In this document: in pieces, positions 2,760 to 55,577 of the stretch
How positions within the stretch are numbered: position 1 is the stretch's first letter
How the letters are laid out: each line of letters starts with the position of its first letter
NCBI GenBank assembly: GCA_015065455.1
Contig: SVQI01000009.1
Location: 1,050-65,049 of the forward strand
Direction of reading: 5' to 3'
Source of the DNA: Oscillospiraceae bacterium
Lineage (GTDB): Bacteria > Bacillota > Clostridia > Oscillospirales > CAG-272
Length of the DNA stretch: 64,000 bases
Made by a program: the position numbers and the translations under genes
The notes under the pieces: model-generated
Told to the model about the DNA's origin: nothing
Seen by the model: only the letters and a program-made list of their open reading frames with translations
Database searches by the model: none

Positions 2760-4969
2760 ATAAAAAAATGGCAAGAAAAAGAAAGAGCACAGCTCTCATC
2801 GAAGAACAGCTCCCCGAAGCTATACCTGTAATTCAGCCTATAACAGAAACGATAGAAAAAAACTATATGCCCTACGCCATGAGCGTTATTATCTCACGTG
2901 CTATTCCCGAAATTGACGGATTCAAGCCGTCCCACAGAAAATTGCTCTACACAATGTACAAAATGGGACTTATGACGGGAAACAGAACCAAAAGCGCTAA
3001 CATCGTCGGTCAGACAATGAAGCTTAACCCTCACGGTGACGCATCAATTTATGAAACAATGGTCAGACTCACAAAGGGCAACGAAGCACTTCTTCACCCG
3101 TTTGTTGATTCAAAGGGAAGCTTTGGTAAACATTACAGTCGTGATATGGCTTACGCGGCAGCGCGTTATACTGAAGCAAAATTGGCTCCTATTTGCTCGG
3201 AAATATTCAGAGGAATTGACAAAAATGCCGTTGAATTTATTCCAAACTACGATAACTCTATGACAGAGCCGACGCTGTTGCCAACAGCATTCCCCAACGT
3301 CCTCGTATCACCCAATATGGGCGTTGCCGTTGGTATGGCAAGTTCTATCTGCTCATTTAACTTAAATGAAATATGCGACGGAACTATCCAGCTTTTGAAA
3401 AATCCAAAAACGGATATAGAAAAAATACTTGATATAATTAAAGCTCCCGATTTCCCCTGCGGTGCATCTCTTATTTATAACAGAGATCAGATGCGCGAGA
3501 TATACGAAACGGGTGCGGGAAGCGTAAAGCTCCGCGCAAGATACACCTACGACAAGGAAGCTAACTGCATTGACGTAATAGAAATCCCCTACTCTACCTC
3601 GATCGAAGCTATCATGAAGCGTATGACCGACCTCGTAAAAGAGGGCAAGCTTAAAGAGGTTACCGATTTCCGTGACGAAATCGACCTTAACGGATTTAAG
3701 CTGACTATAGATTTGCGCCGAGGAACAGACCCCGACAAGCTTATGGTAAAGCTCTATAAGTTGACTCCCCTTGAAGACAACTTCAGCTGTAACTTTAACG
3801 TTCTTGTCGATATGGTTCCGAAACAGATGGGAGTAAAAGAACTCCTTAACGAGTGGATAAAGTTCAGAATGGGTTGCGTTAAGCGCGAGCTTCAGTACGA
3901 ACACGACAGAAAGAGCGAAAAGCTTCACCTTTTGCTTGGTCTTGGAAAAATTATACTCGATATAGATAAGGCTATTCAAATTATCAGAGATACAAAGAGC
4001 GAAAAAGACGTTATCCCGAACCTTATGGCAGGCTTTGATATTGACGAAATTCAAGCTAACTATATTGCGGATATTAAGCTCAGAAATCTTAACCTTGAGT
4101 ATATTATAAACAGAGTCAAGGAGATCGAATCTTTGCAAAAAGAAATTGCAGAGCTAAAGGATACGATCGAAAACGACTCAAAGGTTAAGGCAGTTATCGC
4201 AAAACAGCTTAAAGATATTAAAGAAAAGTTCGGTCAACCGAGAAAGACTCAACTTATATACGATTACGACGTTTCCGAATACAACGAGGAAGAGTATATC
4301 GAAAACTACAACGTTAAGTTGTTGCTGACACGCGACGGCTTCTTTAAGAAAATAACTCTCGTTTCTCTCAGAGGAAACGACGAACAGAAATTTAAAGAGG
4401 GCGACGAGATAAGAGTGGAAGAAAGCGCCACGAATATGGATGAAATTGTTTTCTTCTCCGACAAATGTCAGATGTATAAGGCTAAAGTCAGAGATTTTGA
4501 TTGCCACAAGGCATCGTCACTCGGGGACTACGTGCCCGCAAAGCTCGGATTTGACGAGGACGAAAAAGTGGTTTATATGAAGGTTCTCAACGAATATAAG
4601 GAAACGGACAGATTTGTGTTTATTTTTGAAAATGGCAAGGGTGTTAAGGTTCCCGTTACCGCTTACGAAACCAAATCTAACCGCAGAAAGCTTACAGGAG
4701 CTTATTCATCAGCATCACCTATCGTTGCGGTATTCCACGAAGAACAGCCGTTTGATATGCTTATTATATCTGACAATAACAGAGCTATTATGATTAATAC
4801 CAAGCTGATTACCGAGAAAGCAACCCGTTCTTCTCAAGGCGCTTCCCTGTTTAAGCTGACCGCAAAACAGAAAGTGGCAAAGGCTGTTCGTGACTTTGAA
4901 GAAAAATATCCTAACGGCAAAAACTGCCGCAAGATAAAAGTTCCCGCAACGGGATCTGCTTTTGACTGA
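2756..4969 (+). CDS. parC: type IIA DNA topoisomerase subunit A (ParC/GyrA family, ParC-like length)
   Basis: 737 aa. Motifs DGFKPSHRK.LY, KSA..VG....NPHGD, and the catalytic Tyr region AAARYTEAKL. The likely real start is ATG 2768 (MARKRK), 12 nt inside the track ORF and overlapping the tsaC stop. No parE lies adjacent. Confidence 0.9.
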   Translation: MNKKMARKRKSTALIEEQLPEAIPVIQPITETIEKNYMPYAMSVIISRAIPEIDGFKPSHRKLLYTMYKMGLMTGNRTKSANIVGQTMKLNPHGDASIYETMVRLTKGNEALLHPFVDSKGSFGKHYSRDMAYAAARYTEAKLAPICSEIFRGIDKNAVEFIPNYDNSMTEPTLLPTAFPNVLVSPNMGVAVGMASSICSFNLNEICDGTIQLLKNPKTDIEKILDIIKAPDFPCGASLIYNRDQMREIYETGAGSVKLRARYTYDKEANCIDVIEIPYSTSIEAIMKRMTDLVKEGKLKEVTDFRDEIDLNGFKLTIDLRRGTDPDKLMVKLYKLTPLEDNFSCNFNVLVDMVPKQMGVKELLNEWIKFRMGCVKRELQYEHDRKSEKLHLLLGLGKIILDIDKAIQIIRDTKSEKDVIPNLMAGFDIDEIQANYIADIKLRNLNLEYIINRVKEIESLQKEIAELKDTIENDSKVKAVIAKQLKDIKEKFGQPRKTQLIYDYDVSEYNEEEYIENYNVKLLLTRDGFFKKITLVSLRGNDEQKFKEGDEIRVEESATNMDEIVFFSDKCQMYKAKVRDFDCHKASSLGDYVPAKLGFDEDEKVVYMKVLNEYKETDRFVFIFENGKGVKVPVTAYETKSNRRKLTGAYSSASPIVAVFHEEQPFDMLIISDNNRAIMINTKLITEKATRSSQGASLFKLTAKQKVAKAVRDFEEKYPNGKNCRKIKVPATGSAFD

Positions 4970-5061: not shown

Positions 5062-5193
5062 ATGGCAGACTCTAAGAAAAAAAGAACAAAAGCAGAAAGA
5101 GATAAATTAGCTATCAGAATTGCATGCGCAGTGATGGGCGGACTTATGGTGCTTGGTACAGCGGCTACTGCAATCCAGTTGCTCTTTGCTTAA
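5062..5193 (+). CDS. small tail-anchored membrane protein, 43 aa (not in the ORF track)
   Basis: ATG preceded by GAGGTGA. Translation MADSKKKRTKAERDKLAIRIACAVMGGLMVLGTAATAIQLLFA has a basic N-terminus and one TM helix. It has its own promoter and terminator. Confidence 0.6.
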   Translation: MADSKKKRTKAERDKLAIRIACAVMGGLMVLGTAATAIQLLFA

Positions 5194-5216
5194 AATCTTA
5201 TTTAAACATACAAAAA

Positions 5217-5246
5217 TACTCCCTTAAGACAAGGGAGTATTTTTTT
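5217..5246 (+). terminator. rho-independent terminator
   Basis: Hairpin tactccctt-aagac-aagggagta followed by TTTTTTT. Confidence 0.8.
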
Positions 5247-5310: not shown

Positions 5311-5947
5311 AACGGCGGGAGCAAAATATACGCCCTACCAAATTAGGATTTGTTACCTATTTTGTGTATTCGATTGTCATTCTCGTTTCTGCCGCCACGG
5401 GATTCTTCGCTTCGCTAAAGAATGACAGCGTGGCGGCACCGTAAAGAATATCAAGCACACAGTTTTTCATAAGTGCCGTCCCCTACCAATTTAAATAATA
5501 CTATCTCAGCAAACCAGGGGGGTACCGAGGGAGGAACGCCCTCGGTCGTTTGCGGGGTAGGGGGTTACGGGGGTGGGGGAATCGAAACCCTCACCCCCGT
5601 ATGCCTTCTTTGGTTACTTTCTTGGCACGCAAGAAAGTAACATAAAAAAGAAAAGACAATATTATCTGTTTAAATTGTTTGCTTTTCTCTCCCTCCGTCA
5701 TTTTCTAACGAAAATGCCACCTCCCTCGTCAGATGGAGGTAAAAAGAGAGATTGTTTCGGGAAGCACACACTGTCAGGAGCTTCGCTCCCGAACCCACAC
5801 CAAAGGTGCTTTTTGAAAAAAGCTCCTTTGGAATCCGCAAAAACTTTATATAAAATAAGCATTAATTTTTTTATATTATTTTTTCAAAATAATATTTTAT
5901 ATGAGCACTTTTAAAAAAGTGCCCTCTTGACTCCCTCAAAACTTTTA
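5311..5947. repeat. mosaic hairpin repeat locus A (forward orientation)
   Basis: Shares long modules with loci at 12036, 22526, 30521, 40138, 49773 and 55081. Examples: gtcaggagcttcgctcccgaacccacac, ccttctttggttactttcttggcacgcaagaaagtaac, ctccctcgtcagatggag. Confidence 0.9.
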
Positions 5948-5988
5948 AAAAAATAAATTCCCAATATTATTTTAATATCGGGAATTTT
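5946..5988 (-). terminator. rho-independent terminator of murI
   Basis: On the minus strand, hairpin ttcccgatatt/aatattgggaa (one G-U pair) followed by a T-run. Confidence 0.65.
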
Positions 5989-5992
5989 TTGT

Positions 5993-6766
5993 TTATCTGT
6001 TAAGCAAAAAGTAGGTAAGATCCATTATTTCTTTTGTGCCTAATGTATTTATAATATGCAGTTCGCCTTTTTGAGTCTGGTCGTTGAGCATATCAATAAG
6101 CTCAAGCCTTCTCTTTGTTTCTCTTGCCGTACCGCTTCCTCCGTCAAATATGACTGCTTTGTGATCAAACGCCTTGCTTACCGCTTCTTTAATATGTGGA
6201 TAATGCGTACAGCCAAGAACCACCGAGTCTACTTTGAGATATCTGAAAGGAGCAAAAATTTCTTTCAAATGCGCGTCAAGCTCAGGTCCCTCAACTATAC
6301 CGCGTTCAATAAGCTTCACAAGCCCCGGGCAAGGCAAAGCTATAATATTTGCCTCGTTGTCGTATCTTCTGGCAAGCTCGTCAAACTTATCCTGCGACAA
6401 GGTAAGAGGTGTAGCCATAACTATAACAGTGGGGTGTATCTTATATAAAACAGCCGGTTTTACAGCAGGCTCAATTCCAATAATCGGAATATCAGGGTGC
6501 ATTTTTCTTAAAGTTTCAGCAGCAACACTCGTTGCCGTATTGCAGGCAATTACTATTGCTTTTGCTCCCTTTTCAAGCAATATTTCAGCATTTTTCTTTG
6601 TTAATTCCTTTATTTCCTCGGCACTTTTTGTCCCGTAAGGAGCATTGATAGAATCTCCGTAATACAAAAAATTTTCATTCGGCAATAGAGCCATAAGCTC
6701 TTTGAGAACGCTTATACCCCCGACTCCCGAGTCAAACACGGCAATAGGATCAGTTTTTTTCATCAA
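5993..6766 (-). CDS. murI: glutamate racemase
   Basis: 257 aa. Motifs FDSGVGG, IACNTATS and LGCTHYP, including both catalytic Cys motifs. Confidence 0.96.
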   Translation of the reverse strand: MMKKTDPIAVFDSGVGGISVLKELMALLPNENFLYYGDSINAPYGTKSAEEIKELTKKNAEILLEKGAKAIVIACNTATSVAAETLRKMHPDIPIIGIEPAVKPAVLYKIHPTVIVMATPLTLSQDKFDELARRYDNEANIIALPCPGLVKLIERGIVEGPELDAHLKEIFAPFRYLKVDSVVLGCTHYPHIKEAVSKAFDHKAVIFDGGSGTARETKRRLELIDMLNDQTQKGELHIINTLGTKEIMDLTYFLLNR

Positions 6767-6963
6767 AATACCACCTTTTGACTGTTTTTATCGTTTAATA
6801 ACAATCTTTAATAAACTGTCATATATTATATCACAGAAATACACTTTCGTCAATTAAAAAGATTTATTGCTCACACTAAAATATGCATTATTTTTTATTA
6901 TTATATATCATTCCCTTTAATACCATTATTATTGTTAAAATGTTACAAAATGATTTGTTACTA

Positions 6964-6992
6964 TTGACAATAAAAAAGAATAGTGCTAAAAT
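6964..6992 (+). promoter_or_regulatory. candidate promoter of the liv-type operon
   Basis: TTGACA, 17 nt, TAAAAT. This predicts a leader of about 190 nt before ATG 7192. Confidence 0.5.
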
Positions 6993-7191
6993 ATAGTATA
7001 TTTTAATAATGAAAGATATTTTTTGTGCCATGTAATTTTTCTATATATTTTTGCTTATACATGCTGTATCTTTCGTATTATTTTTGGCACAGTCGGAAAG
7101 TGCCTTTTTTGTTTTGATATACTTTTAACCGATAATTACGGTTGTTTGTATATATACTATTCTATTTTTTATTTTTCAAGGAGAAAAAACT

Positions 7192-8346
7192 ATGAAAAGA
7201 ATTCTCGCACTCATGCTTGCTGTTGTTATGTGTGCAGCTATATTAGTTGGCTGTAACAGCAAAAAAGATGACGGCAGCACATTAAGAATCGGTAGCATCG
7301 GACCTGTAACAGGTGATGCGGCAATCTACGGTCAGGCTGTTAAAAACGGTTGCCAGATCGCAGTTGACGAAATCAACGCAGCAGGCGGAATCAACGGAAT
7401 TAAGATTGAATATCAGTTCCAGGATGACGCAAACGTTTCTGAAACAGCTGTAAACGCTTATAACAAGCTTATGGACTGGGGCATGGACGTACTCGTTGGT
7501 ACAGTTACAACTAACCCCTGTATTTCTGTTTCAACAGAAATTAACAAGGACCGCGTATTTGCGCTCACACCCTCTGCATCTTCAACAGACGTAACAGCAG
7601 GAAAAGACAATATGTTCCAGCTTTGCTTTACAGACCCCAACCAGGGTACAGGTTCTGCAACATATATTTCCGCTAATATGGCTGATAAGAAGATCGCTAT
7701 CATCTACCGTAACGATGACGCTTACTCACAGGGTATCCGTAACACATTCGTTGCAGAAGCAAAGAATAAGAACCTCAACGTTGTATACGAAGGTACATTT
7801 AACAAGGACACTGCAACAGACTTTACAGTTCAGCTCACAGGTGCTAAGGCAGCAGGCGCTGACCTTATCTTCCTTCCCATCTACTACCAGCCCGCATCCG
7901 TAATTTTTGCACAGGCAGACGCTATGGGTTATGATCCTATATTCTTCGGTGTTGACGGTATGGACGGTATTCTCACAATGAAGAACTTCGACATTAAGCT
8001 TGCTGAAGGCGTAATGGTTCTCACTCCCTTCTCTGCTGACGCAGAAGATGAAAGAACACAGAACTTCGTTAAGGAATATCAGAAACGCCACGGTGAAGTT
8101 CCCAACCAGTTCGCAGCTGACGGTTATGACTGCATTTATGCAATCAAGGCAGCTTACGAAAAGGCGGGCGCAAATCAGGATATGTCTACTGAAGAACTCT
8201 GCGATGCACTTGTAAAGGCTATGAAGGAACTTTCATTCGACGGTCTTACAGGTAAAGCTATGACTTGGAACGACAAGGGCGAAGTAAACAAGATGCCCAC
8301 AGCCGTTGTAATCAAAGACGGTAAGTACGTTTCTGCAGGTAAATAA
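7192..8346 (+). CDS. branched-chain amino-acid ABC transporter substrate-binding lipoprotein (LivJ/K family)
   Basis: 384 aa. Lipobox LVGC after the signal peptide. Type I periplasmic-binding fold pattern, and first gene of the livHMGF-like operon. Confidence 0.9.
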   Translation: MKRILALMLAVVMCAAILVGCNSKKDDGSTLRIGSIGPVTGDAAIYGQAVKNGCQIAVDEINAAGGINGIKIEYQFQDDANVSETAVNAYNKLMDWGMDVLVGTVTTNPCISVSTEINKDRVFALTPSASSTDVTAGKDNMFQLCFTDPNQGTGSATYISANMADKKIAIIYRNDDAYSQGIRNTFVAEAKNKNLNVVYEGTFNKDTATDFTVQLTGAKAAGADLIFLPIYYQPASVIFAQADAMGYDPIFFGVDGMDGILTMKNFDIKLAEGVMVLTPFSADAEDERTQNFVKEYQKRHGEVPNQFAADGYDCIYAIKAAYEKAGANQDMSTEELCDALVKAMKELSFDGLTGKAMTWNDKGEVNKMPTAVVIKDGKYVSAGK

Positions 8347-10350: not shown

Positions 10351-11194
10351 ATTCGCTAAAAGCAGAGACAAACTCGTACCCGTTCCGAGCGATGCGCTTA
10401 TCCCCCAGAGAGATATTGATAAATCTCCTATTCTCGAAGCAAGACATCTTGGAATTGAATTCGGCGGCCTTAAAGCCGTTGATGATTTTAACCTCACGAT
10501 AGGCAGAACGGAAATTGCAGGTCTTATCGGACCTAACGGTGCTGGTAAAACTACTGTATTCAACCTTCTTACAAAAGTATATCAGCCGACAAAGGGCACT
10601 ATACTTATTGATGGCATTGATACTCACGGAATGAACACCGTACAGGTAAGCAAAATAGGTGTTGCAAGAACATTCCAGAACATCAGACTTTTTAACAACC
10701 TTACTGTTGAAGAAAACGTTAAGCTCGGTATGCATAATCAGATCAAATACGGTATGGTCAGCGGTATTCTCCGCACACCTAACTATTGGAAGCAGGAAAG
10801 AATTGCTCACGAAAGAGCAATGGAGCTTCTCAGTATATTTGATATGGAATCTTTGGCAAACCATAAGGCTGGTTCACTTCCCTACGGCGCACAAAGACGT
10901 CTTGAAATTGTCAGAGCACTCGGAACAAATCCCGGTCTGTTACTCCTTGACGAGCCTGCGGCGGGTATGAACCCTTCTGAAACAGTTGAACTTATGGAAA
11001 ATATAATCAAGATTCGTGATACTTTTAAGATTGCAATAATGCTTATAGAACACGATATGAATCTCGTTATGGGTATATGCGAGGGTATATGCGTGCTTAA
11101 CTTCGGTAAAGTAATTGCAAAAGGAAGCCCCGAAGATATCCAGTCAAATCCTGTTGTTATCGAGGCTTATCTCGGTAAAAAGAAGGAGGGCTAA
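10343..11194 (+). CDS. livG: branched-chain amino-acid ABC transporter ATP-binding protein
   Basis: 283 aa. Walker A GPNGAGKTT, signature LPYGAQRRLE, Walker B LLLLDEPAAG. Overlaps the livM end by 8 nt. Confidence 0.93.
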   Translation: MNRFAKSRDKLVPVPSDALIPQRDIDKSPILEARHLGIEFGGLKAVDDFNLTIGRTEIAGLIGPNGAGKTTVFNLLTKVYQPTKGTILIDGIDTHGMNTVQVSKIGVARTFQNIRLFNNLTVEENVKLGMHNQIKYGMVSGILRTPNYWKQERIAHERAMELLSIFDMESLANHKAGSLPYGAQRRLEIVRALGTNPGLLLLDEPAAGMNPSETVELMENIIKIRDTFKIAIMLIEHDMNLVMGICEGICVLNFGKVIAKGSPEDIQSNPVVIEAYLGKKKEG

Positions 11195-11202
11195 ACTAAA
11201 AT

Positions 11203-11913
11203 ATGTCACAAATTCTTAAAGTTGATAACATAAACGTATATTACGGCGCTATACACGCTATAAAGGGCGTATCTCTTGAGGTAAACGAAGGAGAAATAGT
11301 AACACTTATCGGCTCGAACGGTGCTGGTAAATCAACAACACTTAAAGCTATTTCTAATTTGCTCCACACAAAAACAGGAAGCATTGAATTCAATGGCGAA
11401 AAGCTTACTCACATTCCGCCTCATAAGATAGTTGAAATGGGCTTAGCTCACGTACCCGAAGGCAGAAGAATATTTCTTCAGATGACCGTTCAGGAAAATC
11501 TCGATATGGGCGCGTATACACAAAGCGGAAAGTATTTTGACGAAGATCTTGAAAAGGTATATGAACAGTTCCCTCGTTTGAAAGAACGTAGAAAACAAAT
11601 TGCAGGAACACTCTCAGGCGGTGAACAGCAAATGTTGGCTATGGGCAGAGCGCTTATGAGCCGCCCTAAGCTTCTTATGCTTGACGAACCTTCAATGGGA
11701 CTTGCACCTATACTTGTTGAACAGATATTCGACATTATAAAGGACCTTCATAAGAAGGGTACAACAATACTTCTTGTTGAACAAAATGCACAGATGGCGC
11801 TTTCCGTTGCTGACAGAGCATATGTTATGGAAACAGGTAAAATTACTCTTTCGGGAACCGGAAAAGAGCTTGCTTCAAGTGATTCTGTAATCAAGGCATA
11901 TCTTGGCGGTTAA
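11203..11913 (+). CDS. livF: branched-chain amino-acid ABC transporter ATP-binding protein
   Basis: 236 aa. Walker A GSNGAGKST, signature LSGGEQQMLA, Walker B LLMLDEPS. Confidence 0.93.
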   Translation: MSQILKVDNINVYYGAIHAIKGVSLEVNEGEIVTLIGSNGAGKSTTLKAISNLLHTKTGSIEFNGEKLTHIPPHKIVEMGLAHVPEGRRIFLQMTVQENLDMGAYTQSGKYFDEDLEKVYEQFPRLKERRKQIAGTLSGGEQQMLAMGRALMSRPKLLMLDEPSMGLAPILVEQIFDIIKDLHKKGTTILLVEQNAQMALSVADRAYVMETGKITLSGTGKELASSDSVIKAYLGG

Positions 11914-12035: not shown

Positions 12036-12284
12036 GCAAGCTCTTTGCCTTGCTCTCTCGTCAGATGGAGCTAATAAATACACGATTTTGCGCGTAAAAA
12101 AGCACAAAAAATCAGGAGCTTCGCTCCCGAACCCTTGACCGAAGGCGCTTTTTAATAAAAGCCCCTTTGGAAGCCGCAAAAACTTTATAAAGATAATCAT
12201 TTATTTTTCTATATTATTTTTTCAAGAAAATATTTTATATGTGCATTTTTGAAAAAGCTCACTCTTGACTCCCCCAAAATTTCA
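12036..12284. repeat. mosaic hairpin repeat locus B (forward orientation, 3-prime modules only)
   Basis: Contains ctcgtcagatggagc, the hairpin caggagcttcgctcccgaaccc, the AT hairpin block tatattattttttcaag and cttgactcccccaaaa, all shared with the other loci. Confidence 0.85.
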
Positions 12285-12532: not shown

Positions 12533-15500
12533 TTACGCGATTGCGCTAGCTGCTGTAAAGTAATCGTACAAGGCATAAACAACATTCTTTGCTGTTTCAT
12601 AACCAGTCTGCTGTGATACTGTGTAAGCGTAGTTAAATACACTATAGTTTACAGTTACGTCGCCAACTGTTGTTACGATTGTCTTATCGAAGTCCTGAGG
12701 AAGAATGTCAGCTTCTTCAACATAGTATCCTAAATGGTTCTGTCCATCGAAGATTGTTGTGTCAGCACCGTCAGCTACTGTGAAGTAGTGTCTGATTGCA
12801 ACCTTGTCAAAGAGAACGATTGTTGAGTACTTATATGTGTAATCTGCTGATGCTCCGGGAACAACGCTTGCTCCTGTTGCATATGTTGCAAGTTCATTCT
12901 TTCTTTCAGCCTGAACAACTGTTGTGCTGTCGATCTTTCCGAAGTGCAACTGTGATAATTCACCATAGTTAAGAACTGCTTCTGCTATATCTGCATATTC
13001 AGGATTTTCTGTAGCCATCTGTTCAGCGTATGCTTCAAATGTTGTTGTGTATGTTCTTGTTTCAACACCATCTACAACAAGCTTAACGCTTACGTCAGTA
13101 GTCATTTCTGTTGCAAACAATTCAGCGCTAATCTTAACGATGTTGTTTGCATCAACCATAGCTGCAGTAACAACTGTTTCGTAAGTCTCATCACCTATTG
13201 TAAGAACATACTTAACTTTGCCTGCTGCAATAGCACTCTTTGTCAAGTCTGTTACTTTGTAATCGATGTTAAGAATTACATTGTTTTCAAGAGTACCGCT
13301 AACTACGTCAACTTCGCCGTAGGGGAATATTTCTACAACTTCATTTGCTGTAAATTCAGCATCGATCTTTGCAGGATCAATTGTTCCGTATGCATAGTAA
13401 ACAACCTTAGATGCGGGAGCTTCTGCAGATGTGTTACGTGTAGACTTGTATGTAATCTTGCCTACTGTACCACCCTGAAGGTTTATTGCCAAGTTACCGA
13501 TGCTGTCATAGTAACCTGCACCTGTAATAGCAATGATTTCGTCTACTGAACCACTCTTAACTGTGATAGAAACGTCGCCTTCAACGTATGAGTACTGTCT
13601 GTTCGCCTTAGGTGATACACCTGTTGCTTTAATCTTTTCAACATTAGCACCGTCGATAACGATTGTAGAATTACCGATAAGAGATGCACTCTTTGATGTG
13701 CTTACAGAGTGACCTGCACCTACGATATATCTCCAGCTACCTGCTTTAACTGTAATAACGGGATCTGCTTCGAGTTCTGCATCAAGACCGTTACGTGTTG
13801 TAGCAAAGATATTGGGGTATCTAGTACCTGCAACAGGAGAACCTGATGCATAGTTGTACGATGTTACGTTAACGTCATCTTCTACTGTAATGTTGTTTCC
13901 GTTAGCGTAGAATGAGAAGTTTGTAACGTACTGTTCACCTGAGTTGTTGCTGTTGTATCTGAACTCGATTGTGGTAGCATCAAATGTTGTGTCTCCACCG
14001 AGCCAGAGAGATGTTGAATCCCAAACGGAGTGATCCAAAACGAATGTTCCGCCTGTGATTTTTACTGCGCCTGTTTCAGGAAGCTTGAAGTCGCCTGCAT
14101 ACTTTCTTTCAAAAGCATCTGCGGCGTCAATAACCAATTCATCAACGATAACGATCTTACCGCCTTCAGCGCCGAGCTGTTCAAGTGCTCTGTACAAAGG
14201 ATGTGCTTTCGCAAGAGCATTGTTTGCAAATACCATCTTGCCTACGCTTACGTTTTCCTTCATCCAAGCAATAACGTCAGCGTATGCAGCATTTTCAAAC
14301 GTTGTACGTATTGTTGTACTACCGTTTGTAACTGTGTCGGTTACTGTACCGGGGCCCAAAGGACTTTCAGCAGAAGAACCGTCGCCTGTACCTGTTGAAG
14401 ATACGTAAATAACACCGGTTTCTATAATTTCATTAGCTGTAAATTCAGCTGCGATCTTTGCAAGGTCAATTGTTCCGTCTTTGTAGTAAATAACCTTAGA
14501 TGCGGGAGCTTCTGCAGATGTGTTACGTGTAGACTTGTATGTAATCTTGCCTACTGTACCACCCTGAAGGTTTATTGCCAAGTTACCGATGCTGTCATAG
14601 TAACCTGCACCTGTAATAGCAATGATTTCGTCTACTGAACCACTCTTAACTGTGATAGAAACGTCGCCTTCAACGTATGAGTACTGTCTGTTCGCCTTAG
14701 GTGATACACCTGTTGCTTTAATCTTTTCAACATTAGCACCGTCGATAACGATTGTAGAATTACCGATAAGAGATGCACTCTTTGATGTGCTTACAGAGTG
14801 ACCTGCACCTACGATATATCTCCAGCTACCTGCTTTAACTGTAATAACGGGATCTGCTTCGAGTTCTGCATCAAGACCGTTACGTGTTGTAGCAAAGATA
14901 TTGGGGTATCTAGTACCTGCAACAGGAGAACCTGATGCATAGTTGTACGATGTTACGTTAACGTCATCTTCTACTGTAATGTTGTTTCCGTTAGCGTAGA
15001 ATGAGAAGTTTGTAACGTACTGTTCACCTGAGTTGTTGCTGTTGTATCTGAACTCGATTGTGGTAGCATCAAATGTTGTGTCTCCACCGAGCCAGAGAGA
15101 TGTTGAATCCCAAACGGAGTGATCCAAAACGAATGTTCCACCTGTGATTGTTACTGCGCCTGTTTCAGGAAGCTTGAAGTCGCCTGCATACTTTCTTTCA
15201 AAAGCATCTGCTGCGTCGATAACCAATTCATCAACGATAACAATCCTACCGCCTTCAGCGCCGAGCTGTTCAAGCGCTCTGTACAAAGGATGTGCTTTCG
15301 CAAGAGCATTGTTTGCAAATACCATCTTGCCCACGCTTACGTTTTCCTTCATCCAAGCAATAACATCAGCGTATGCAGCATTTTCAAACGTTGTACGTGT
15401 TGTTGTACTACCGTTTGTAACTGTGTCGGTTACTGTACCGGGGCCCAAAGGACTCTGAGCAGAGGAACCGTCGCCTGTACCTGTTGATGATACGTAAATA

Positions 15501-15598
15501 ACATTTGTTTCATTAGCAGAAGCAAACATTACTGTACATGACACGATTACTGCAACGAGCAATAATGCAGGTACAAGAAATTTCATGAATTTTCTCAT
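12533..15598 (-). CDS. secreted repeat-containing surface protein, predicted beta-helix-like, with an internal 363-aa tandem duplication
   Basis: 1021 aa. Signal peptide MRKFMKFLVPALLLVAVIVSCTVMFASA. Two near-identical 363-aa modules plus a C-terminal domain of about 260 aa shared with 15989..18034. Confidence 0.85.
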   Translation of the reverse strand: MRKFMKFLVPALLLVAVIVSCTVMFASANETNVIYVSSTGTGDGSSAQSPLGPGTVTDTVTNGSTTTRTTFENAAYADVIAWMKENVSVGKMVFANNALAKAHPLYRALEQLGAEGGRIVIVDELVIDAADAFERKYAGDFKLPETGAVTITGGTFVLDHSVWDSTSLWLGGDTTFDATTIEFRYNSNNSGEQYVTNFSFYANGNNITVEDDVNVTSYNYASGSPVAGTRYPNIFATTRNGLDAELEADPVITVKAGSWRYIVGAGHSVSTSKSASLIGNSTIVIDGANVEKIKATGVSPKANRQYSYVEGDVSITVKSGSVDEIIAITGAGYYDSIGNLAINLQGGTVGKITYKSTRNTSAEAPASKVIYYKDGTIDLAKIAAEFTANEIIETGVIYVSSTGTGDGSSAESPLGPGTVTDTVTNGSTTIRTTFENAAYADVIAWMKENVSVGKMVFANNALAKAHPLYRALEQLGAEGGKIVIVDELVIDAADAFERKYAGDFKLPETGAVKITGGTFVLDHSVWDSTSLWLGGDTTFDATTIEFRYNSNNSGEQYVTNFSFYANGNNITVEDDVNVTSYNYASGSPVAGTRYPNIFATTRNGLDAELEADPVITVKAGSWRYIVGAGHSVSTSKSASLIGNSTIVIDGANVEKIKATGVSPKANRQYSYVEGDVSITVKSGSVDEIIAITGAGYYDSIGNLAINLQGGTVGKITYKSTRNTSAEAPASKVVYYAYGTIDPAKIDAEFTANEVVEIFPYGEVDVVSGTLENNVILNIDYKVTDLTKSAIAAGKVKYVLTIGDETYETVVTAAMVDANNIVKISAELFATEMTTDVSVKLVVDGVETRTYTTTFEAYAEQMATENPEYADIAEAVLNYGELSQLHFGKIDSTTVVQAERKNELATYATGASVVPGASADYTYKYSTIVLFDKVAIRHYFTVADGADTTIFDGQNHLGYYVEEADILPQDFDKTIVTTVGDVTVNYSVFNYAYTVSQQTGYETAKNVVYALYDYFTAASAIA
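13325..15502. repeat. in-frame tandem duplication, 2 x 1,089 bp
   Basis: Units are about 13325..14413 and 14414..15502. Long runs of DNA are identical at an offset of 1089 (for example 13403 vs 14492). The mirrored antisense track ORFs 14030..14398 and 15119..15487 also differ by exactly 1089. Confidence 0.95.
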
Positions 15599-15988: not shown

Positions 15989-18034
15989 TTACACAAGCGC
16001 GTCGGCTGCTTTATAATAATCATACAAAGCATAAACGATGTTCTTTGTAGTTGTAAACTTTTCCGATGTCTGTTGAGACACTAAATAAGCATAATTCATT
16101 ACGCTGTATTTTACTGTACATCCGTCAACCTCAACGGTCTGTGCATCAGCATATTCCTGAGGAAGAATATCGCTGATTTCGATATAATATCCTTTATCGT
16201 TATAACCGTCAAACATCGACGTATCCGCACCTTCTACTATACCGAAGTAATGTCTGATCGCGATCTTATCAAAAAGAACAAGTGACGAATAATTATACGT
16301 GTACTGTGTTGAAGCTCCACTGACAGATGCGCCTGTTTCGTACGCTGTAAGCTCGGTTTTTCTTTCAGGTTGATTTACCGTTGTGCTATTGATCGTTCCA
16401 AAGTGGAACTGTGACATTTGTCCATATTTAAGCACTGCCGCCGCTACTTCCGCATACTCAGGATTATCAAGTGCCATCTGCTCTGCGTACGCTTCAAACG
16501 TTGTTGTGTAAGTATCACATTCAACTTCACCAACATACAACGTACCGCTGACTTCAGCAGTCATTTCCGTACCGTAAAGAGTTGCCGGGAATCTGACGAC
16601 GTTATTTGCATCAATCATTTCTGCAGTAATTATATATTCCTCTTGAACTCTGTTACCAACCGCAAATGCATATTTAACAGTCTTTCCTGCCGCAATAGCA
16701 TCCTTTGTCGCCTGTGTAACTTTAAAATCAAGGTTAAGCTCAACGTTATTATTAAGTGTGCCGCTGACCATATCAACTTCACCGTAGATATTCTTTACGT
16801 TTACAGCTGTGAAGTTTCCACTGATCTCGGGAGCATTTTGAGCTTTTGTTACGTAGCACGTAACAACCGAAGACGTAGGTTCATATACACTTCCGTTTGT
16901 TGTGTTCTTGTAAACAATTTCACCGATCGTTGCAGTTTCGTGTGTGTTTATTGTCAACGTGCCGACAATACCTGCAGACGTTACTCCGTAAATTGAGCCG
17001 ATTGTACCGCCCGTAACGTTTACAGTTGCATTACCGTTAAGAATACTAAAATGTATAGGGTTCAGTTTTGAGCCTTGGTATGCAGAGGTTTTACCCGAGC
17101 ACCACAATTTTTCAATCGTACCGCCTGTAACGTTAATCGTTGCATTACCTCTGAGGTCTGCATCATAGGATGAACTACTAGAATATATACTATGTCCTGC
17201 CGCAGATACGTCAGTCCAATGTCCCGACTTAATGGTAATAATCGGATTTCCTGTTATTGCTGTATATTTAATTGACGTAGCATAGATAGAGGGGTATTCA
17301 TTACCCTCGACGCGATTTCCGGAAACGTAATCAAACGACGTTACGTCAACACCCTCGCCTATTGTAAGGTTGTGTCCGCCTGCAAGGAACGAAAAGTGAT
17401 GCGTCATAGTAGAACGGCTATAATTTGCATTATTACTAATGTGGATACCTGAATTATATCTGTTTTCTATGCCGATATTCTGAATTGTCGTATCACCGCT
17501 GAACTGAATATGAGTAGAGTTGTAAACAGTATGGTCCAAAATAAGCTTAGAATTTGCATTGTAACCTTCGATTACGATAGGTCCGGCAGAAGGAGTAATC
17601 ATCTTGCCTTCATATCCAATCTCGAAAGTAACAGCCGCATCAAGAGCGAGCTCGCCAACAACAACCACCTTACCACCTTCAGCTCCAAGCCGTTGAATAG
17701 CTTTATACAAAGGATGAGCTTTTGTGAGCGCGTTGTTTGCAAATTTAACAGTCGTAATCTTTCTTATATCATCACTCTTCAACCAGGTGATAACACTTTC
17801 GTACGATGCGTTGGAAAAACTCTTTGTTTTACTGGAATTGCTGGAATTCTTGTACGAAACAGAATCCGTCACCGTGCCAGGTCCCATAGGACTCTGAGCC
17901 GAAGAACCGTCGCCCGTACCGCTTTGCGATATGTAAATAACGTCAGTTTCAGCAGAAGCAAACATTACTGTGCATGACACAATCACTGCAATCAGCACCA
18001 AAGAAGGAATAAGAAACTTTATGAATTTTTTCAT
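15989..18034 (-). CDS. secreted surface protein, single-module paralog of 12533..15598
   Basis: 681 aa. Near-identical signal peptide (MKKFIKFLIPSLVLIAVIVSCTVMFASA). Shares the GDGSSAQSP motif, the HPLY.A...LGAEGG motif and a conserved C-terminal domain (TTTFEAYAEQMA..NPEYA, YALYDY). Confidence 0.85.
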   Translation of the reverse strand: MKKFIKFLIPSLVLIAVIVSCTVMFASAETDVIYISQSGTGDGSSAQSPMGPGTVTDSVSYKNSSNSSKTKSFSNASYESVITWLKSDDIRKITTVKFANNALTKAHPLYKAIQRLGAEGGKVVVVGELALDAAVTFEIGYEGKMITPSAGPIVIEGYNANSKLILDHTVYNSTHIQFSGDTTIQNIGIENRYNSGIHISNNANYSRSTMTHHFSFLAGGHNLTIGEGVDVTSFDYVSGNRVEGNEYPSIYATSIKYTAITGNPIITIKSGHWTDVSAAGHSIYSSSSSYDADLRGNATINVTGGTIEKLWCSGKTSAYQGSKLNPIHFSILNGNATVNVTGGTIGSIYGVTSAGIVGTLTINTHETATIGEIVYKNTTNGSVYEPTSSVVTCYVTKAQNAPEISGNFTAVNVKNIYGEVDMVSGTLNNNVELNLDFKVTQATKDAIAAGKTVKYAFAVGNRVQEEYIITAEMIDANNVVRFPATLYGTEMTAEVSGTLYVGEVECDTYTTTFEAYAEQMALDNPEYAEVAAAVLKYGQMSQFHFGTINSTTVNQPERKTELTAYETGASVSGASTQYTYNYSSLVLFDKIAIRHYFGIVEGADTSMFDGYNDKGYYIEISDILPQEYADAQTVEVDGCTVKYSVMNYAYLVSQQTSEKFTTTKNIVYALYDYYKAADALV

Positions 18035-22451: not shown

Positions 22452-22457
22452 CACAAA

Positions 22458-22492
22458 ACGGGCGGACAAACGAATCCGCCCGTATATTTTTA
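22458..22492 (+). terminator. rho-independent terminator of queH
   Basis: Hairpin acgggcgga-caaacga-atccgcccgt followed by a T-rich tail. Confidence 0.75.
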
Positions 22493-22525: not shown

Positions 22526-23210
22526 GGAAATGAATCACACCGTGATGTCATTCACTCCGTCGCCACCGCTTCGCTACCTCGTCAGATGAGGACTTATAAT
22601 AACACTGGGGCGAAAACGAACTCATCCGTCACACCGCGTTTTATATTTGTAAAAAAATGAAGTTTGTTAGCGGTGTGCCACCTTCTCTCACCAGAGAAGG
22701 CACAGAGTATAGCCTTTGTCTTTTTGTTTTTATTTTGTTGGTCTTATAATTTTATAAAATCATTTTATTTATTACATCGAATTGCACCAATTTTGCACCT
22801 TCTCTGGTGAGAGAAGGTGGCGTGCCGCCAATATATTTAAGTATATTTTGTCATATAACGCGGCGCGACGGATGAGTTCGTCTATCCTCCCAAAAATACA
22901 CTAACTTAAACCTCCATCTGAGGAGGGAGGTGGCTCGGCAATAGGTAAATATAGAATATTTTTATTCTTTGTTGCCGAGACGGAGGGAGAGATATATGTT
23001 AAATATCTGATTGCAATATTGTTTGTTTAAACCGTTTGTTCTTCTCTCCCTCAGTCTCGCAGTCGCTCGCCAGCTCCCTCCTCAGATGGAGCCGAGAAAT
23101 ACGCGCTTCGCGCGTAAAAAGTACATACTGTCAGCTTCTTCGCTCCCGAACCCACACAAAAGGAGCTTTTGGAAAAAAGCTCCTTTGGAATCCGCAAAAA
23201 CTTTATAAAA
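22526..23210. repeat. mosaic hairpin repeat locus C (mixed orientations)
   Basis: Contains a palindrome related to aatgacatcac-ggt-gtgatgtcatt, an inverted duplication of about 264 bp (22617..22880), one reverse copy of the core (ctccatctgaggagggag) and one forward copy with the full 3-prime block. Confidence 0.9.
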
Positions 23211-30474: not shown

Positions 30475-30520
30475 CATTTTAAAAAAGCGATCAAGAAAAA
30501 TAATTGTTATAAACGGGACG

Positions 30521-31245
30521 TCGAAGAAGGGATTCCCCGAAACGCACGAAGTAAGTTTTTGGGAGTTCTCGTGTGCGCCGTCCCCTACCAAGTTAGGATT
30601 TATTATTTATTTAAATAATTTGTTCTTCTCTCCCTCAGTCAACTTCGTTGACAGCTCCCTCGTCAGATGGAGCTAAAAAGTTAGACTTTTTCAAAAAAAC
30701 GGCGGGAGCAAAATATACGCCCTAAAAATTTAGGATTTATTAACTCGCAATTCTTCTCAAACGGAGCGGCGGTGACATCGCCCCCTACAAAACAGGCAAT
30801 ACCGTCTCAGCAAACGATGGGGGTGCAAAGGGGGTAATCCCCCTTTGTCGTTTGCGGGGTAGGGGTTTATAGGGGCGGGGGAATCGAAACCCCTGCCCCT
30901 ATATGCCTTCTTTGGTTACTTTCTTGGCACGCAAGAAAGTAACGTAAAAAAAGAAAAAGACAATATTATCTGTTTAAAACGTTTATCTTTCTCTCCCTCA
31001 GTCATTTTCTAACGAAAATGCCAGCTCCCTCCTCAGATGGAGCCGAGAAATACGCGCTTCGCGCGTAAAAAAGCACAAAATGTCAGGAGCTTCGCTCCCG
31101 AACCCACACAAGAGGTGCACTTTTGAAAAAGTGCCCTCTTGACTCCCTCAAAACTTTTAATATAATTTTTTATATTATTTTTTAAAATATTATTTTATAT
31201 GTGCACTTTTGAAAAAGTGCCCTCTTGACTCCCCCAAAACTTTAC
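30521..31245. repeat. mosaic hairpin repeat locus D (forward orientation, most complete copy)
   Basis: Contains two copies of the framed core (30620..30672 and 30980..31042), the GC-rich three-hairpin module (30808..30943) and two copies of the gtgcacttttgaaaaagtgccctcttgactccc block. Confidence 0.92.
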
Positions 31246-40137: not shown

Positions 40138-40790
40138 ACTCATTCGTCGCGCCGCTTCGCTACCTTCTCAGATGGAGCTAAAAAGTTAGATTATTTCAAA
40201 AAACGGCGGAAGCAAGATATACGCCCCACAAGCTAAACAATACCATCTCTGCAAACACGGGGAAACCGAAGGGGGTGTCCCCCTCGGTCGTTTGGTGGTT
40301 GGGGGTCGAGGGGGAGGAGGAATCGAAACCTCCGTCCCCTTGTGCCTTCTTTGGTTACTTTCTTGGCACGCAAGAAAGTAACGTAAAAAAGAAAAGACAA
40401 TATTATCTAATTAAAACGTTAATTCTTCTCTCCCTCAGTCATTTTCTAACGAAAATGCCAGCGTCTACTGCGGTTCGGTCACGGCTCGGCTCTACCAGTG
40501 AACCCCCAAGCTTTACTTCGTGCAGCTCGGGGAACCCCTAACCAGTCCACCGGACTTTTATTCACTCCCTCGCCGCCGCTTCGCTACCTCGTCAGATGGA
40601 GCCGAGAATTACGCGCTTCGCGCGTAAAAAAGGCACAGAATGTCAGGAGCTTTGCTCCCAAACCCACACAAAAGGAGCGCTTTTAAAAAAGCGCCCTCTT
40701 GACTCCCCCAAAACCTTTAGTAAAAAATTTTTAAATGCTCTTTTTGAAAAACACTCCTTTGGAAACCGCAAAAAATTTAATAAAACAACA
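40138..40790. repeat. mosaic hairpin repeat locus E (forward orientation, with nested extra modules)
   Basis: Module order matches locus D, but the framed core is split by about 150 bp of extra sequence (about 40452..40584). The GC-rich module lies at 40249..40382. Confidence 0.9.
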
Positions 40791-49772: not shown

Positions 49773-50150
49773 AAGTTTTTGCGGAGTCCAGAGGGGCTTG
49801 CTCCCGCCGTTTTTTAGAAGAACTAACTTTTTTAGCTCCATCTGATGAGGTAGCGAAGCGGCGGCGAGGGAGTGAATGACATCACGGTGTGATGTCATTT
49901 CCGAGCCGTGACCGAACCGCAGTAGACGCTGTCAACGAAGTTGACTGAGGGAGAGAAGAAATGGAGTAACACAACAATAAGTAATTAAAGCTGTGAAAAA
50001 TTGAACACCCTCTCTCCTTTCTCCTTGGCTAAAAATCGGATTATTCATTATATCAAATTCATAAGAAGAATAATCCGATTTTCTTAACGCCAATTCCTCC
50101 TTCCTCGTCAGAGGAAGGCGAGGTTGTAATGCACGCTTCGCTACGTTACA
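49773..50150. repeat. mosaic hairpin repeat locus F (reverse orientation)
   Basis: Reverse complement of modules seen in loci D and E: ctccatctgatgaggtagcgaagcggcggcgagggagtgaat, ccgagccgtgaccgaaccgcagtagacg, gtcaacgaagttgactgagggagagaagaa. It also has a 13-bp-stem hairpin at about 50034..50088. Confidence 0.88.
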
Positions 50151-50210
50151 AAAAGAAGTAGCATTACCTAATCTTGTACGGGGGAATTCTTTTGTCTGCC
50201 CGTTATACAA

Positions 50211-54863: not shown

Positions 54864-55010
54864 ATGAAACCTTTAAAGGAAAAAATAAGCATAACATTAG
54901 ATAGTGATATTCTTGATGAAGTTCGCAAGAAAGCAGACGAGGACGAGCGTTCACTGTCGCAATTTATTAATCTCATTTTGAAGCAATATCTTATTACTAT
55001 AAAAAACTAA
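54864..55010 (+). CDS. ribbon-helix-helix (CopG/Arc-like) small DNA-binding protein, 48 aa (not in the ORF track)
   Basis: GGAGGG RBS. Translation MKPLKEKISITLDSDILDEVRKKADEDERSLSQFINLILKQYLITIKN fits an RHH beta-strand plus two helices (RS.S.FI....L). Confidence 0.65.
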   Translation: MKPLKEKISITLDSDILDEVRKKADEDERSLSQFINLILKQYLITIKN

Positions 55011-55080: not shown

Positions 55081-55577
55081 GTGATGTCATTTCCGAAGTG
55101 TGCCCGAACCGCAGTAAAACGTCCCCTACCAAATTAGGAAATATTGTATATTTAAATTATTTGTTCTTCTCTCCCTCAGTCAAAAACAAGCTTTTGACAG
55201 CTCCCTCGTCAGATAGAACTAAAAGATACATTTTTAAAAAAACGGGGCGTCAATGAAGGGGTTCCCCCGTATGCCTTCTTTGGTTACTTTCTTGGCATGC
55301 AAGAAAGTAACGTAAAAAAAAAGACATTATTATTTAGATAAATAATACATCTTAAAAAAAGAAAAAGCTATCGCTTTTTTTAAGGGAGCACAAAATGTCA
55401 GGAGCTTCGCTCCCGAATATATGACAAAAGAGGCTTTTTGAAAAAAGCCCCTCTTGACTCCCCAAATACTTTAAACAAATAAACATTTATTATTTCTCTA
55501 TATTATTTTTTAAAAAATAATATTTACTATATGCGCTTTTTGAAAAAACTCCTTTGGAAACCGCAAAAACTTTTAAA
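55081..55577. repeat. mosaic hairpin repeat locus G (mainly forward, first module reversed)
   Basis: Contains gtgatgtcatttccgaag..cccgaaccgcagta (reverse relative to loci E and F), a framed core with the cassette gtcaaaa-acaagc-ttttgac, the gttactttcttggcatgcaagaaagtaac hairpin, caggagcttcgctcccgaa and the AT hairpin block. Confidence 0.88.

Follow-up and report, generated by a model that had tools for sequence, protein, structure and literature searches.

The BOX, RUP, and SPRITE repeats are lineage-specific and enriched between convergent genes (PMC3049150). The bcr1 repeat is described in PMC3184786 (citing Økstad 2004 and Klevan 2007) as mobile and transcribed, with an RNA structure preserved through compensatory changes. 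Tagged repetitive extragenic palindromes (REPs) have been surveyed in eight phyla, and the survey does not mention Firmicutes (PMC3733652). Here we describe a repeat from 64,000 nucleotides of an Oscillospiraceae bacterium (contig SVQI01000009.1, positions 1,050 to 65,049; hereafter the window) and compare it with these systems. An earlier note on the window had singled out a GC-rich three-hairpin module, whose changing stems and conserved loops were taken to indicate selection on structure in RNA or single-stranded DNA. The best-supported reading is that the module belongs to a new repeat family of a known kind and is not a demonstrated RNA gene, because it is the core of a much larger non-coding repeat. 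It is probably the GC-rich core of a modular, non-coding, lineage-specific interspersed repeat of the same kind as BOX, SPRITE, bcr1, and the bacterial interspersed mosaic elements (BIMEs), with terminator-like hairpins.

Three full copies and one shortened copy of the module were present, as had been reported, all of them on the + strand, and a covariance model recovered exactly these four in the window (139, 135, 128, and 54 bits). When each full copy was folded, the layout described before was reproduced: an outer helix, P1, encloses hairpin P2 and is followed by hairpin P3 and then by H4. Relative to dinucleotide shuffles, the folds had z-scores between −5.2 and −8.6. H4 is a 29-nt AT-rich hairpin, GTTACTTTCTTGGCAYGCAAGAAAGTAAC, with 11-bp arms and an asymmetric 7-nt spacer. 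It had four matches in the window and none in 100 shuffles, and an unbiased search found no degenerate H4 copies in the 64 kb. The P2 and P3 stem sequences had been quoted correctly, while several finer points required revision. The G·U pair of P3, which had been given one shared position, falls on pair 11 of copy A but on pair 10 of copy D; gggtagggg, presented as a common element, is missing from copy E, where ggtggttggggg stands; and the copy called truncated is really a deletion derivative that joins an upstream hairpin (ACGGGGCGTC...) to the P3 3' arm. The P1 pairing gcaaac/gtttgc holds in copies A and D only, and as a general helix P1 has its two outer pairs mostly unpaired (12 copies). 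The P3 loop aatcgaaa is invariant inside the window, but gatcggaa is the commonest variant in the sister species.

The idea of the module as an autonomous unit did not survive, as it is one block of a colinear, non-coding composite repeat of 0.3–0.8 kb. Seven regions of the window share blocks in one order, with differing deletions and local duplications (Table 1). They make up 7.1% of the window, and no matches to them were found elsewhere in it. In all seven regions, the order of sub-units was fixed and their presence and number varied, as in BOX. The full module was found in three of the seven composites (A, D, and E) and its deletion form in one (T), and three were without it. The composite of copy A is bounded by the own terminators of both flanking genes, at 5212–5244 and 5955–5987. 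The remaining blocks are hairpins too, with conserved loops and covarying stems, for example GCTCC-CTCGTCAGAT-GGAGC versus CCTCC…GGAGG. A 45-nt mini-hairpin, Hins, reads GAACCCCCAA-NNN-TTACTTCGTGC-NNN-TCGGGGAACCCC with an invariant 11-nt loop, and its stems come in three fully compensatory versions (AAAC/GTTT, AACC/GGTT, and AGCT/AGCT). It occurs in both orientations, either alone, on the tips of other hairpins, or within the 3' arm of P3, where 3–5 nt are duplicated at the junctions. Beyond the two positions in the window, Hins was seen in 12 further contexts (L001–L022).

Table 1 Positions of the composite repeats in the window and of the parts of the three-hairpin module (window coordinates).
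Feature	Position	Strand	Context or content
Composite copy A	5311–5947	+	Between small ORF/topo IV-A gene (+) and murI (−)
Composite copy B	12048–12283	+	Downstream blocks only; without three-hairpin module
Composite copy C	22540–23205	+	Without three-hairpin module; inverted sub-modules 22912–22992; houses inverted-repeat element 22616–22881
Composite copy D	30511–31244	+	Most complete; between ftsW (+) and GH2 gene (−)
Composite copy E	40148–40779	+	Between ABC ATPase gene (+) and DegT-type aminotransferase gene (−)
Composite copy X49	49790–50210	−	Sole − strand copy; without three-hairpin module
Composite copy T	55117–55574	+	
Full module, copy A	5509–5641	+	
Full module, copy D	30810–30943	+	
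Full module, copy E	40251–40382	+	
Shortened module, copy T	ends at 55311	+	
Copy A, P1 enclosing P2	5509–5556; P2 5525–5545	+	P1 gcaaac/gtttgc; P2 ccgaggg/ccctcgg
Copy A, P3	5566–5601	+	14-bp GC-rich hairpin, loop aatcgaaa, then tgccttctttgg; terminator-like score on +
Copy A, invariant block	5602–5650	+	tgccttctttg, H4 (5613–5641), and A-rich tail
Copy D, parts	P1 from 30810; P2 30826–30847; P3 30868–30903; H4 30915–30943	+	
Copy E, parts	P2 40266–40287; P3 40307–40342; H4 40354–40382; Hins 40500–40538	+	Hins is an extra mini-hairpin
Copy T, parts	fused hairpin 55242–55270; H4 55283–55311	+	Fused hairpin replaces P1–P3 (deletion derivative); one C>T in H4 loop
Copy D, Hins	30530–30568	−	Inverted, at tip of large upstream hairpin

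All seven composites lie between convergent genes, inside the own terminators of both genes. By a script count over the window, composites occupy 6 of 7 convergent junctions and 1 of 32 tandem ones, with none at the 7 divergent ones. At the one convergent junction left empty, the gap is 1 nt, and the occupied tandem junction turns convergent if a small open reading frame (ORF) of ribbon-helix-helix type, recognized by eye at 54866–55010, is counted. With this ORF included, every usable convergent junction in the window (seven) carries a composite. The flanking genes are ordinary chromosomal or housekeeping genes (topo IV-A, murI, queH, proS, ftsW, GH2, ABC transporter, and DegT-type genes).

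Outside the window, a scan for exact matches to H4 recovered 25 copies in 24 loci, all from one metagenome-assembled genome of a sister species, Oscillospiraceae bacterium SIG632. Its coding DNA is 85.5% identical to that of the window, and the MurI proteins are 97% identical. In SIG632, none of 16 divergent junctions had the repeat, compared with 6 of 13 convergent and 8 of 77 tandem ones, and the orientation of the repeat relative to the genes in the tandem contexts was not fixed. Many of the SIG632 copies were located at contig ends, which is expected of a repeat that breaks assemblies. The next relatives were reached by gene-anchored look-ups with MurI homologues (93–82% identity), by which ~68 kb were sampled. 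These contained no repeat block and no H4 with up to four mismatches allowed, and the covariance model detected no diverged module in them, its one weak match being an H4-like hairpin in a tandem repeat. At the orthologous site in the relative L031, which is empty, the small ORF and murI have one common bidirectional terminator. No further copies were obtained from two scans of metagenome collections, a scan of viral contigs, or plasmid and phage BLAST searches. The median convergent gap was 807 nt in the window and 151 nt in the next relatives. Given the lack of the repeat in the ~68 kb from relatives, the empty site in L031, and the difference in convergent gaps, the family is a lineage-specific expansion in one narrow lineage of uncultured Oscillospiraceae. 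The host lineage is probably from the ruminant gut. With seven sites in 64 kb, 24 loci in SIG632, and an empty orthologous site, the family shows the general features of an interspersed repeat.

To assess the conservation of structure, 13 distinct copies were aligned by hand, with N placeholders standing in at the bulges, and the alignment tool left every column intact; MAFFT alone mis-aligned the bulged arms of P3. In P3, 8 of the 14 pairs had changed on both sides and 99.4% of cells were paired, while P2 had two-sided changes in 2 of 9 pairs with 98.9% of cells paired. Only the inner four pairs of P1 held (76% paired), and these were without covariation. Across the helices, 96% of cells were paired and 10 pairs showed two-sided changes, a result that none of 500 shuffles reached, and pairing fell to 47–60% in a control with sliding partners. 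Approximately five cells were disruptive (L009 in P2; winE, L005, L012, and L029 in P3). The helices of P2 and P3 are therefore kept by paired changes and broken far less often, as had been proposed. The covariation is graded, being strong in P3, modest in P2, and absent in P1, with H4 invariant, and its rows are paralogues that exchange hairpins in a hand-fitted alignment. Much of it represents a handful of whole-hairpin alleles that recombine, not many independent events.

The two strands differed in how well their pairing was preserved. The helices contained 20 G·U cells versus 0 A·C cells, with about six independent origins, and one P3 pair showed the stepwise series C-G, T·G, T-A. The + strand folded better, by about 10 kcal/mol, in 16 of 17 distinct copies, with mean free energies of −74 versus −65 kcal/mol. 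Since G·U pairs occurred without A·C and the + strand folded better, these results point to the + strand as the strand whose pairing is kept. Paired changes together with strand-asymmetric pairing argue against the neutral decay of a dead repeat, in agreement with the earlier note. Structure-preserving change is upheld for P2 and P3, P1 is weak, and the invariance of H4 in SIG632 stems partly from the way the copies were retrieved.

The copies differ by the shuffling of whole hairpins. P2 types and P3 types combine freely between copies, and deletion derivatives arise at G-run microhomologies. In its variable core, copy A shares 91% identity with a SIG632 copy at a non-orthologous locus and 52% with the copy on the orthologous contig; because it is nearer to the non-orthologous copy, the comparison points to copies having been exchanged or replaced, with the caveat that contigs from short reads can be chimeric across repeats. 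From TGCC to AATATTAT around H4, by contrast with the 85.5% identity of flanking coding DNA, one difference in ~75 nt was read between the species. H4 was identical in every copy recovered from either species, apart from the single loop change in copy T, the SIG632 copies having been retrieved by exact match. In a sister species, L034 contains at 1995–2300 a tandem array of ~75-nt units, each with a TTGACT-like motif and an H4-like hairpin (CCTACTTTCTT…AAGAAAGTAGG). This hairpin has a 9-bp core in common with H4 and is a possible relative or precursor of the H4 block.

Compared with described repeats, the composite is closest in kind to BOX and SPRITE of Streptococcus pneumoniae, which are likewise non-coding, strongly folded, enriched between convergent genes, and limited to one species group (PMC3049150). 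Like BOX (67–637 bp), it is modular with a variable number of sub-units, and like SPRITE, for which no dedicated transposase is known either, it has a long GC stem followed by a U-rich tract, in P3 (PMC3049150). However, the ends of the composite are not complementary, whereas boxA and boxC are. It is longer than BOX and SPRITE, with many more block types and far higher occupancy of convergent junctions, and neither has a counterpart to the perfectly conserved AT-rich palindrome H4. To our knowledge, it has no sequence resemblance to BOX (boxA/B/C) or SPRITE, and the organism is unrelated. The bcr1 repeat of the Bacillus cereus group (PMC3184786) is similar in being a lineage-specific Firmicute repeat (~155 bp) with two independent stem-loops; it differs in having 5-bp flanking direct repeats and clear insertion polymorphism, while the composite ends show no duplication.

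Several hairpins of the composite resemble intrinsic terminators. P3 has a 14-bp GC stem, an 8-nt loop, and a U-rich tail; in copies A and D it was flagged as an intrinsic terminator on the + strand, as were hairpins R, H5, and H6 on the − strand. There were six terminator-like sites per region versus 1.2–1.3 expected. The AAAACGG-stem hairpins upstream resemble terminators native to this clade, such as the queH terminator at 22455–22490 and the shared terminator in L031. Unlike ordinary intrinsic terminators, the hairpins of the repeat sit beyond the genes' own terminators in multi-hairpin arrays repeated genome-wide, and the U-tract after P3 is interrupted (UGCCUUCUUUGG).

In the reading that we favor, a lineage-specific interspersed repeat, the composite would have colonized, within one narrow lineage, the space that separates the terminators of convergent genes. 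Copies would multiply and replace one another as DNA, through transposition by a trans-acting enzyme or through gene conversion between copies, and would persist only where promoters stay undisturbed. We only infer this mechanism, because no transposase, terminal inverted repeats, or target-site duplication was found at the composite ends. H4 and its flanks are the likely part recognized by some factor. The GC-rich hairpins may be kept since a single strand must fold, most simply in read-through RNA. In such RNA, transcripts of the + strand would be terminated or protected by P3 and its U-rich tract, and those of the − strand by the upstream AAAACGG-stem hairpins and the GTTTT that follows them.

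A number of observations weigh against this reading. At the composite ends, neither a transposase nor terminal inverted repeats nor a target-site duplication was found; the left end AACGG… and the right end …CAAAACTTTA are not complementary, as the ends of a MITE (miniature inverted-repeat transposable element) would be, and are without flanking duplication. The only duplication-like signal was the 3–5 nt around the mini-hairpin within P3. The read-through RNA is an assumption, as a strong terminator of its own separates each flanking gene from the repeat. The bulged P3 variants (copy E and the commonest SIG632 type) were not flagged as terminators. The structural alignment was hand-fitted to the structure, and the SIG632 copies were found by exact H4 match, so that H4 invariance there is by construction. 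Hins has a conserved A·C mismatch, located on what is the + strand when it is inserted in P3; its wobble is on the opposite strand, so the repeat as a whole lacks a uniform strand asymmetry. Among the short-read contigs, L002, L026, and L027 may be chimeras formed across repeats. Finally, the full occupancy of convergent junctions and the identical H4 fit host function or targeted insertion better than passive parasitism.

These last features lead to explanations in which the host selects the element. The composite could be an insulator at convergent junctions, with back-up terminators in both directions and/or a site for a topoisomerase or nucleoid protein that eases supercoiling and collisions. 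We regard this as unlikely. It would account for the occupation of every usable convergent junction in the window, with the repeat nowhere else, for the terminator-like hairpins facing both ways, and for the H4 palindrome (11-bp arms, 7-nt spacer), which is perfectly conserved as a protein site would be. The E. coli BIME-2 elements are gyrase sites. However, close relatives cope with a single shared terminator at their far shorter convergent gaps (median 151 versus 807 nt), and 7 of the 13 convergent junctions in SIG632 are empty. Module content also differs greatly between junctions, so no single block is indispensable. A related possibility, to which we give equally little credence, is that the composite is a host-kept, junction-specific element in which a dedicated protein (for example, a recombinase or a domesticated enzyme of the HUH/RAYT-like kind) would act at H4 and the hairpins would fold in single-stranded form. 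It might represent a partnership like that of REPINs and RAYTs (REP-associated tyrosine transposases), or a terminator-targeting mobile element, in either case of a type so far undescribed in Clostridia.

A third possibility is a REP/BIME-type system, in which a HUH tyrosine transposase (RAYT) encoded in single copy would mobilize GTAG-tagged hairpins of single-stranded DNA. No such system has been described before in this group of Clostridia, and we consider it improbable. The composite is similar to REP, BIME, and REPIN elements in its mosaic make-up, GC-rich hairpins, GTAG-like foot tags, head-to-head arrangement, and high copy number (PMC2817692, PMC3733652, PMC6006769), and shares their preference for extragenic sites at convergent and unidirectional junctions (PMC3733652). 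On the − strand, most upstream hairpins carry GT[AG]G within 0–2 nt of the stem, reading GTAG directly followed by the GC-rich stem (…CCCCTAC on the + strand). With GGGGTAGGGG before P3 on the + strand, the tags face each other, as they do in head-to-head REP dimers (PMC3733652). All five H4-bearing copies in ~83 kb of the window species were co-oriented, as were both pairs of copies sharing a contig in SIG632, and RAYT group 1 is present in Clostridia (PMC5581495). However, the tag varies (GTGG, GTTG, CTAT, and CCAC occur) and stands 5–6 nt from the P3 stem (GTAG, GTGG, or GTTG) rather than within 0–2 nt, as the criteria of PMC6006769 demand. The two supposed REPs are unrelated in sequence, not mutual copies, and lie ~85 nt apart, and at 300–800 bp the elements far exceed the 20–40 bp of REPs. 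No Y1 transposase was detected in the 20 ORFs scanned against Pfam (10 in the window and 10 beside copies) or in the gene calls near ftsW and in the DNA upstream of the window, and no RAYT was found in the DNA scanned, which covered part of the window and ~10% of a genome. A transposase was also sought beside copies in non-convergent contexts, where only housekeeping genes were present. With regard to palindrome-associated elements derived from IS200/IS605, H4-bearing copies were co-oriented in 6 of 6 neighboring pairs and no tnpA was seen, but composite X49 is inverted, which weakens uniform + orientation as a sign of replication-linked transposition.

The earlier note had left room for RNA, and the modules might be independently transcribed structured small RNAs or cis-acting RNA, with P1–P2–P3 as the fold, P3 as terminator, and H4 as a protein-binding hairpin. 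The chances of this are slim in our judgment. Compensatory changes, loops more conserved than stems, G·U pairs on the + strand only, the U-rich tract after P3, and the strong constraint on the H4 block would all fit such an RNA. It would be new, as no known family matches: Rfam identified only a tRNA-Thr in the whole window, and a permissive Rfam scan of copy D gave a best E-value of 0.18, with every match far under the gathering score. However, no consistent conserved promoter was present upstream of P1 or of the first hairpin, and inspection by eye of ~20 copies revealed no sigma-70 promoter at a fixed distance upstream of P1. Among the seven composites, three are without the module and one has it deleted, and a density of about one per 10–15 kb suits a repeat rather than a gene family. 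The module was not found in the ~68 kb from species at 82–93% MurI identity, and if P3 terminates transcription, the best-conserved block, H4, falls outside the RNA. The case for a single RNA strand is further weakened by the neighboring Hins of the same repeat, which wobbles on the opposite strand. The family is high-copy and lineage-specific, like selfish or structural repeats.

As a candidate for the repeat's own promoter, TTGACT-N16/17-TATAAT-like blocks were rejected, since all of them are confined to the distal 3' end of the composite, facing the neighbor's terminator. These near-consensus sigma-70 promoter-like blocks (TTGACT, 16–18 nt, TATAAT/AAAAAT) were located on the + strand at 31139–31166, 5927–5954, and 40699–40728, aimed into the bidirectional terminator of the convergent gene, and each was preceded by a GCAC-TTTTGAAAAA-GTGC hairpin. 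Known structured elements were also considered and discarded. A hammerhead ribozyme was suggested by one block whose − strand reads CUGANGA, but by inspection the stem II/GAAA arrangement was missing. For H4, the end motifs and bulge pattern did not fit an integron attC site or a group II intron domain V (by inspection), and the P3 loop is not a tRNA-like T-arm, as it has 8 nt rather than 7 and received no ARAGORN call.

Hairpin-rich repeats are prone to templated correction (quasipalindrome correction). Structure without selection, in which intrastrand template switching or gene conversion inside hairpins would maintain perfect palindromes and the copies would be neutral relics, is very unlikely: whole-hairpin alleles are indeed swapped between copies, and several paired changes could be single templated events, but G·T wobbles persist at fixed places on one strand only, including the series C-G > T·G > T-A, the loops and the H4 block are conserved far above flanking coding DNA, and the 64 kb contain no decayed H4 relics.

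The family is very dense, covering ~7% of the sequence and all usable convergent junctions, in gut Clostridia, a group with hardly any descriptions of such elements. The family also carries a warning for RNA-motif discovery: covariation among paralogous repeats that exchange hairpins mimics selection on RNA and does not prove an RNA gene. If it is true that H4 is a protein site or that the hairpins are back-up terminators, the family would offer a tractable model of repeats joining the boundaries of transcription units. The repeat further explains assembly breaks and partner switches at intergenic sites, as in L026, L027, and the contig ends of SIG632. In two contigs of the window species from other samples (L026 at 4370–4400 and L027 at 4650–4670), the sequence downstream of ftsW switches to DUF559/PfkB/gyrB or to uvrA. 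The switch points are inside repeat blocks and reflect either real recombination between copies or assembly chimeras.

Some further features were noted in and around the window. The inverted-repeat element housed by composite C is a separate, MITE-like element of ~265 bp with two inverted arms of ~85 nt and an AT-rich center, part of which recurs at 11600–11700 of L032, from a sister species without the main repeat. The ribbon-helix-helix-like ORF immediately upstream of copy T (+ strand; MKPLKEKISITLDSDILDEVRKKADEDERSLSQFINLILKQYL…) has its own terminator. So does a 43-aa hydrophobic small ORF at 5063–5194 (+), which has a good ribosome-binding site and is called as a gene in other assemblies; L031, from a sister species, has a 43-aa ORF at 10825–10956, similarly placed beside a topo IV-A-like gene. 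About 2 kb upstream of the window start, L028 encodes an IS3-family (rve) transposase at 6521–7753 within a different gene set, which is replaced by other genes in L029 and L030, indicating a strain-variable region unrelated to the repeat. Two large neighboring ORFs on the − strand, at 12533–15598 and 15989–18034, share long similar stretches, including 220 nt at the start and upstream (D8, 85%). The former had no Pfam match and contains internal repeats that are 96% identical and spaced 1089 bp apart.

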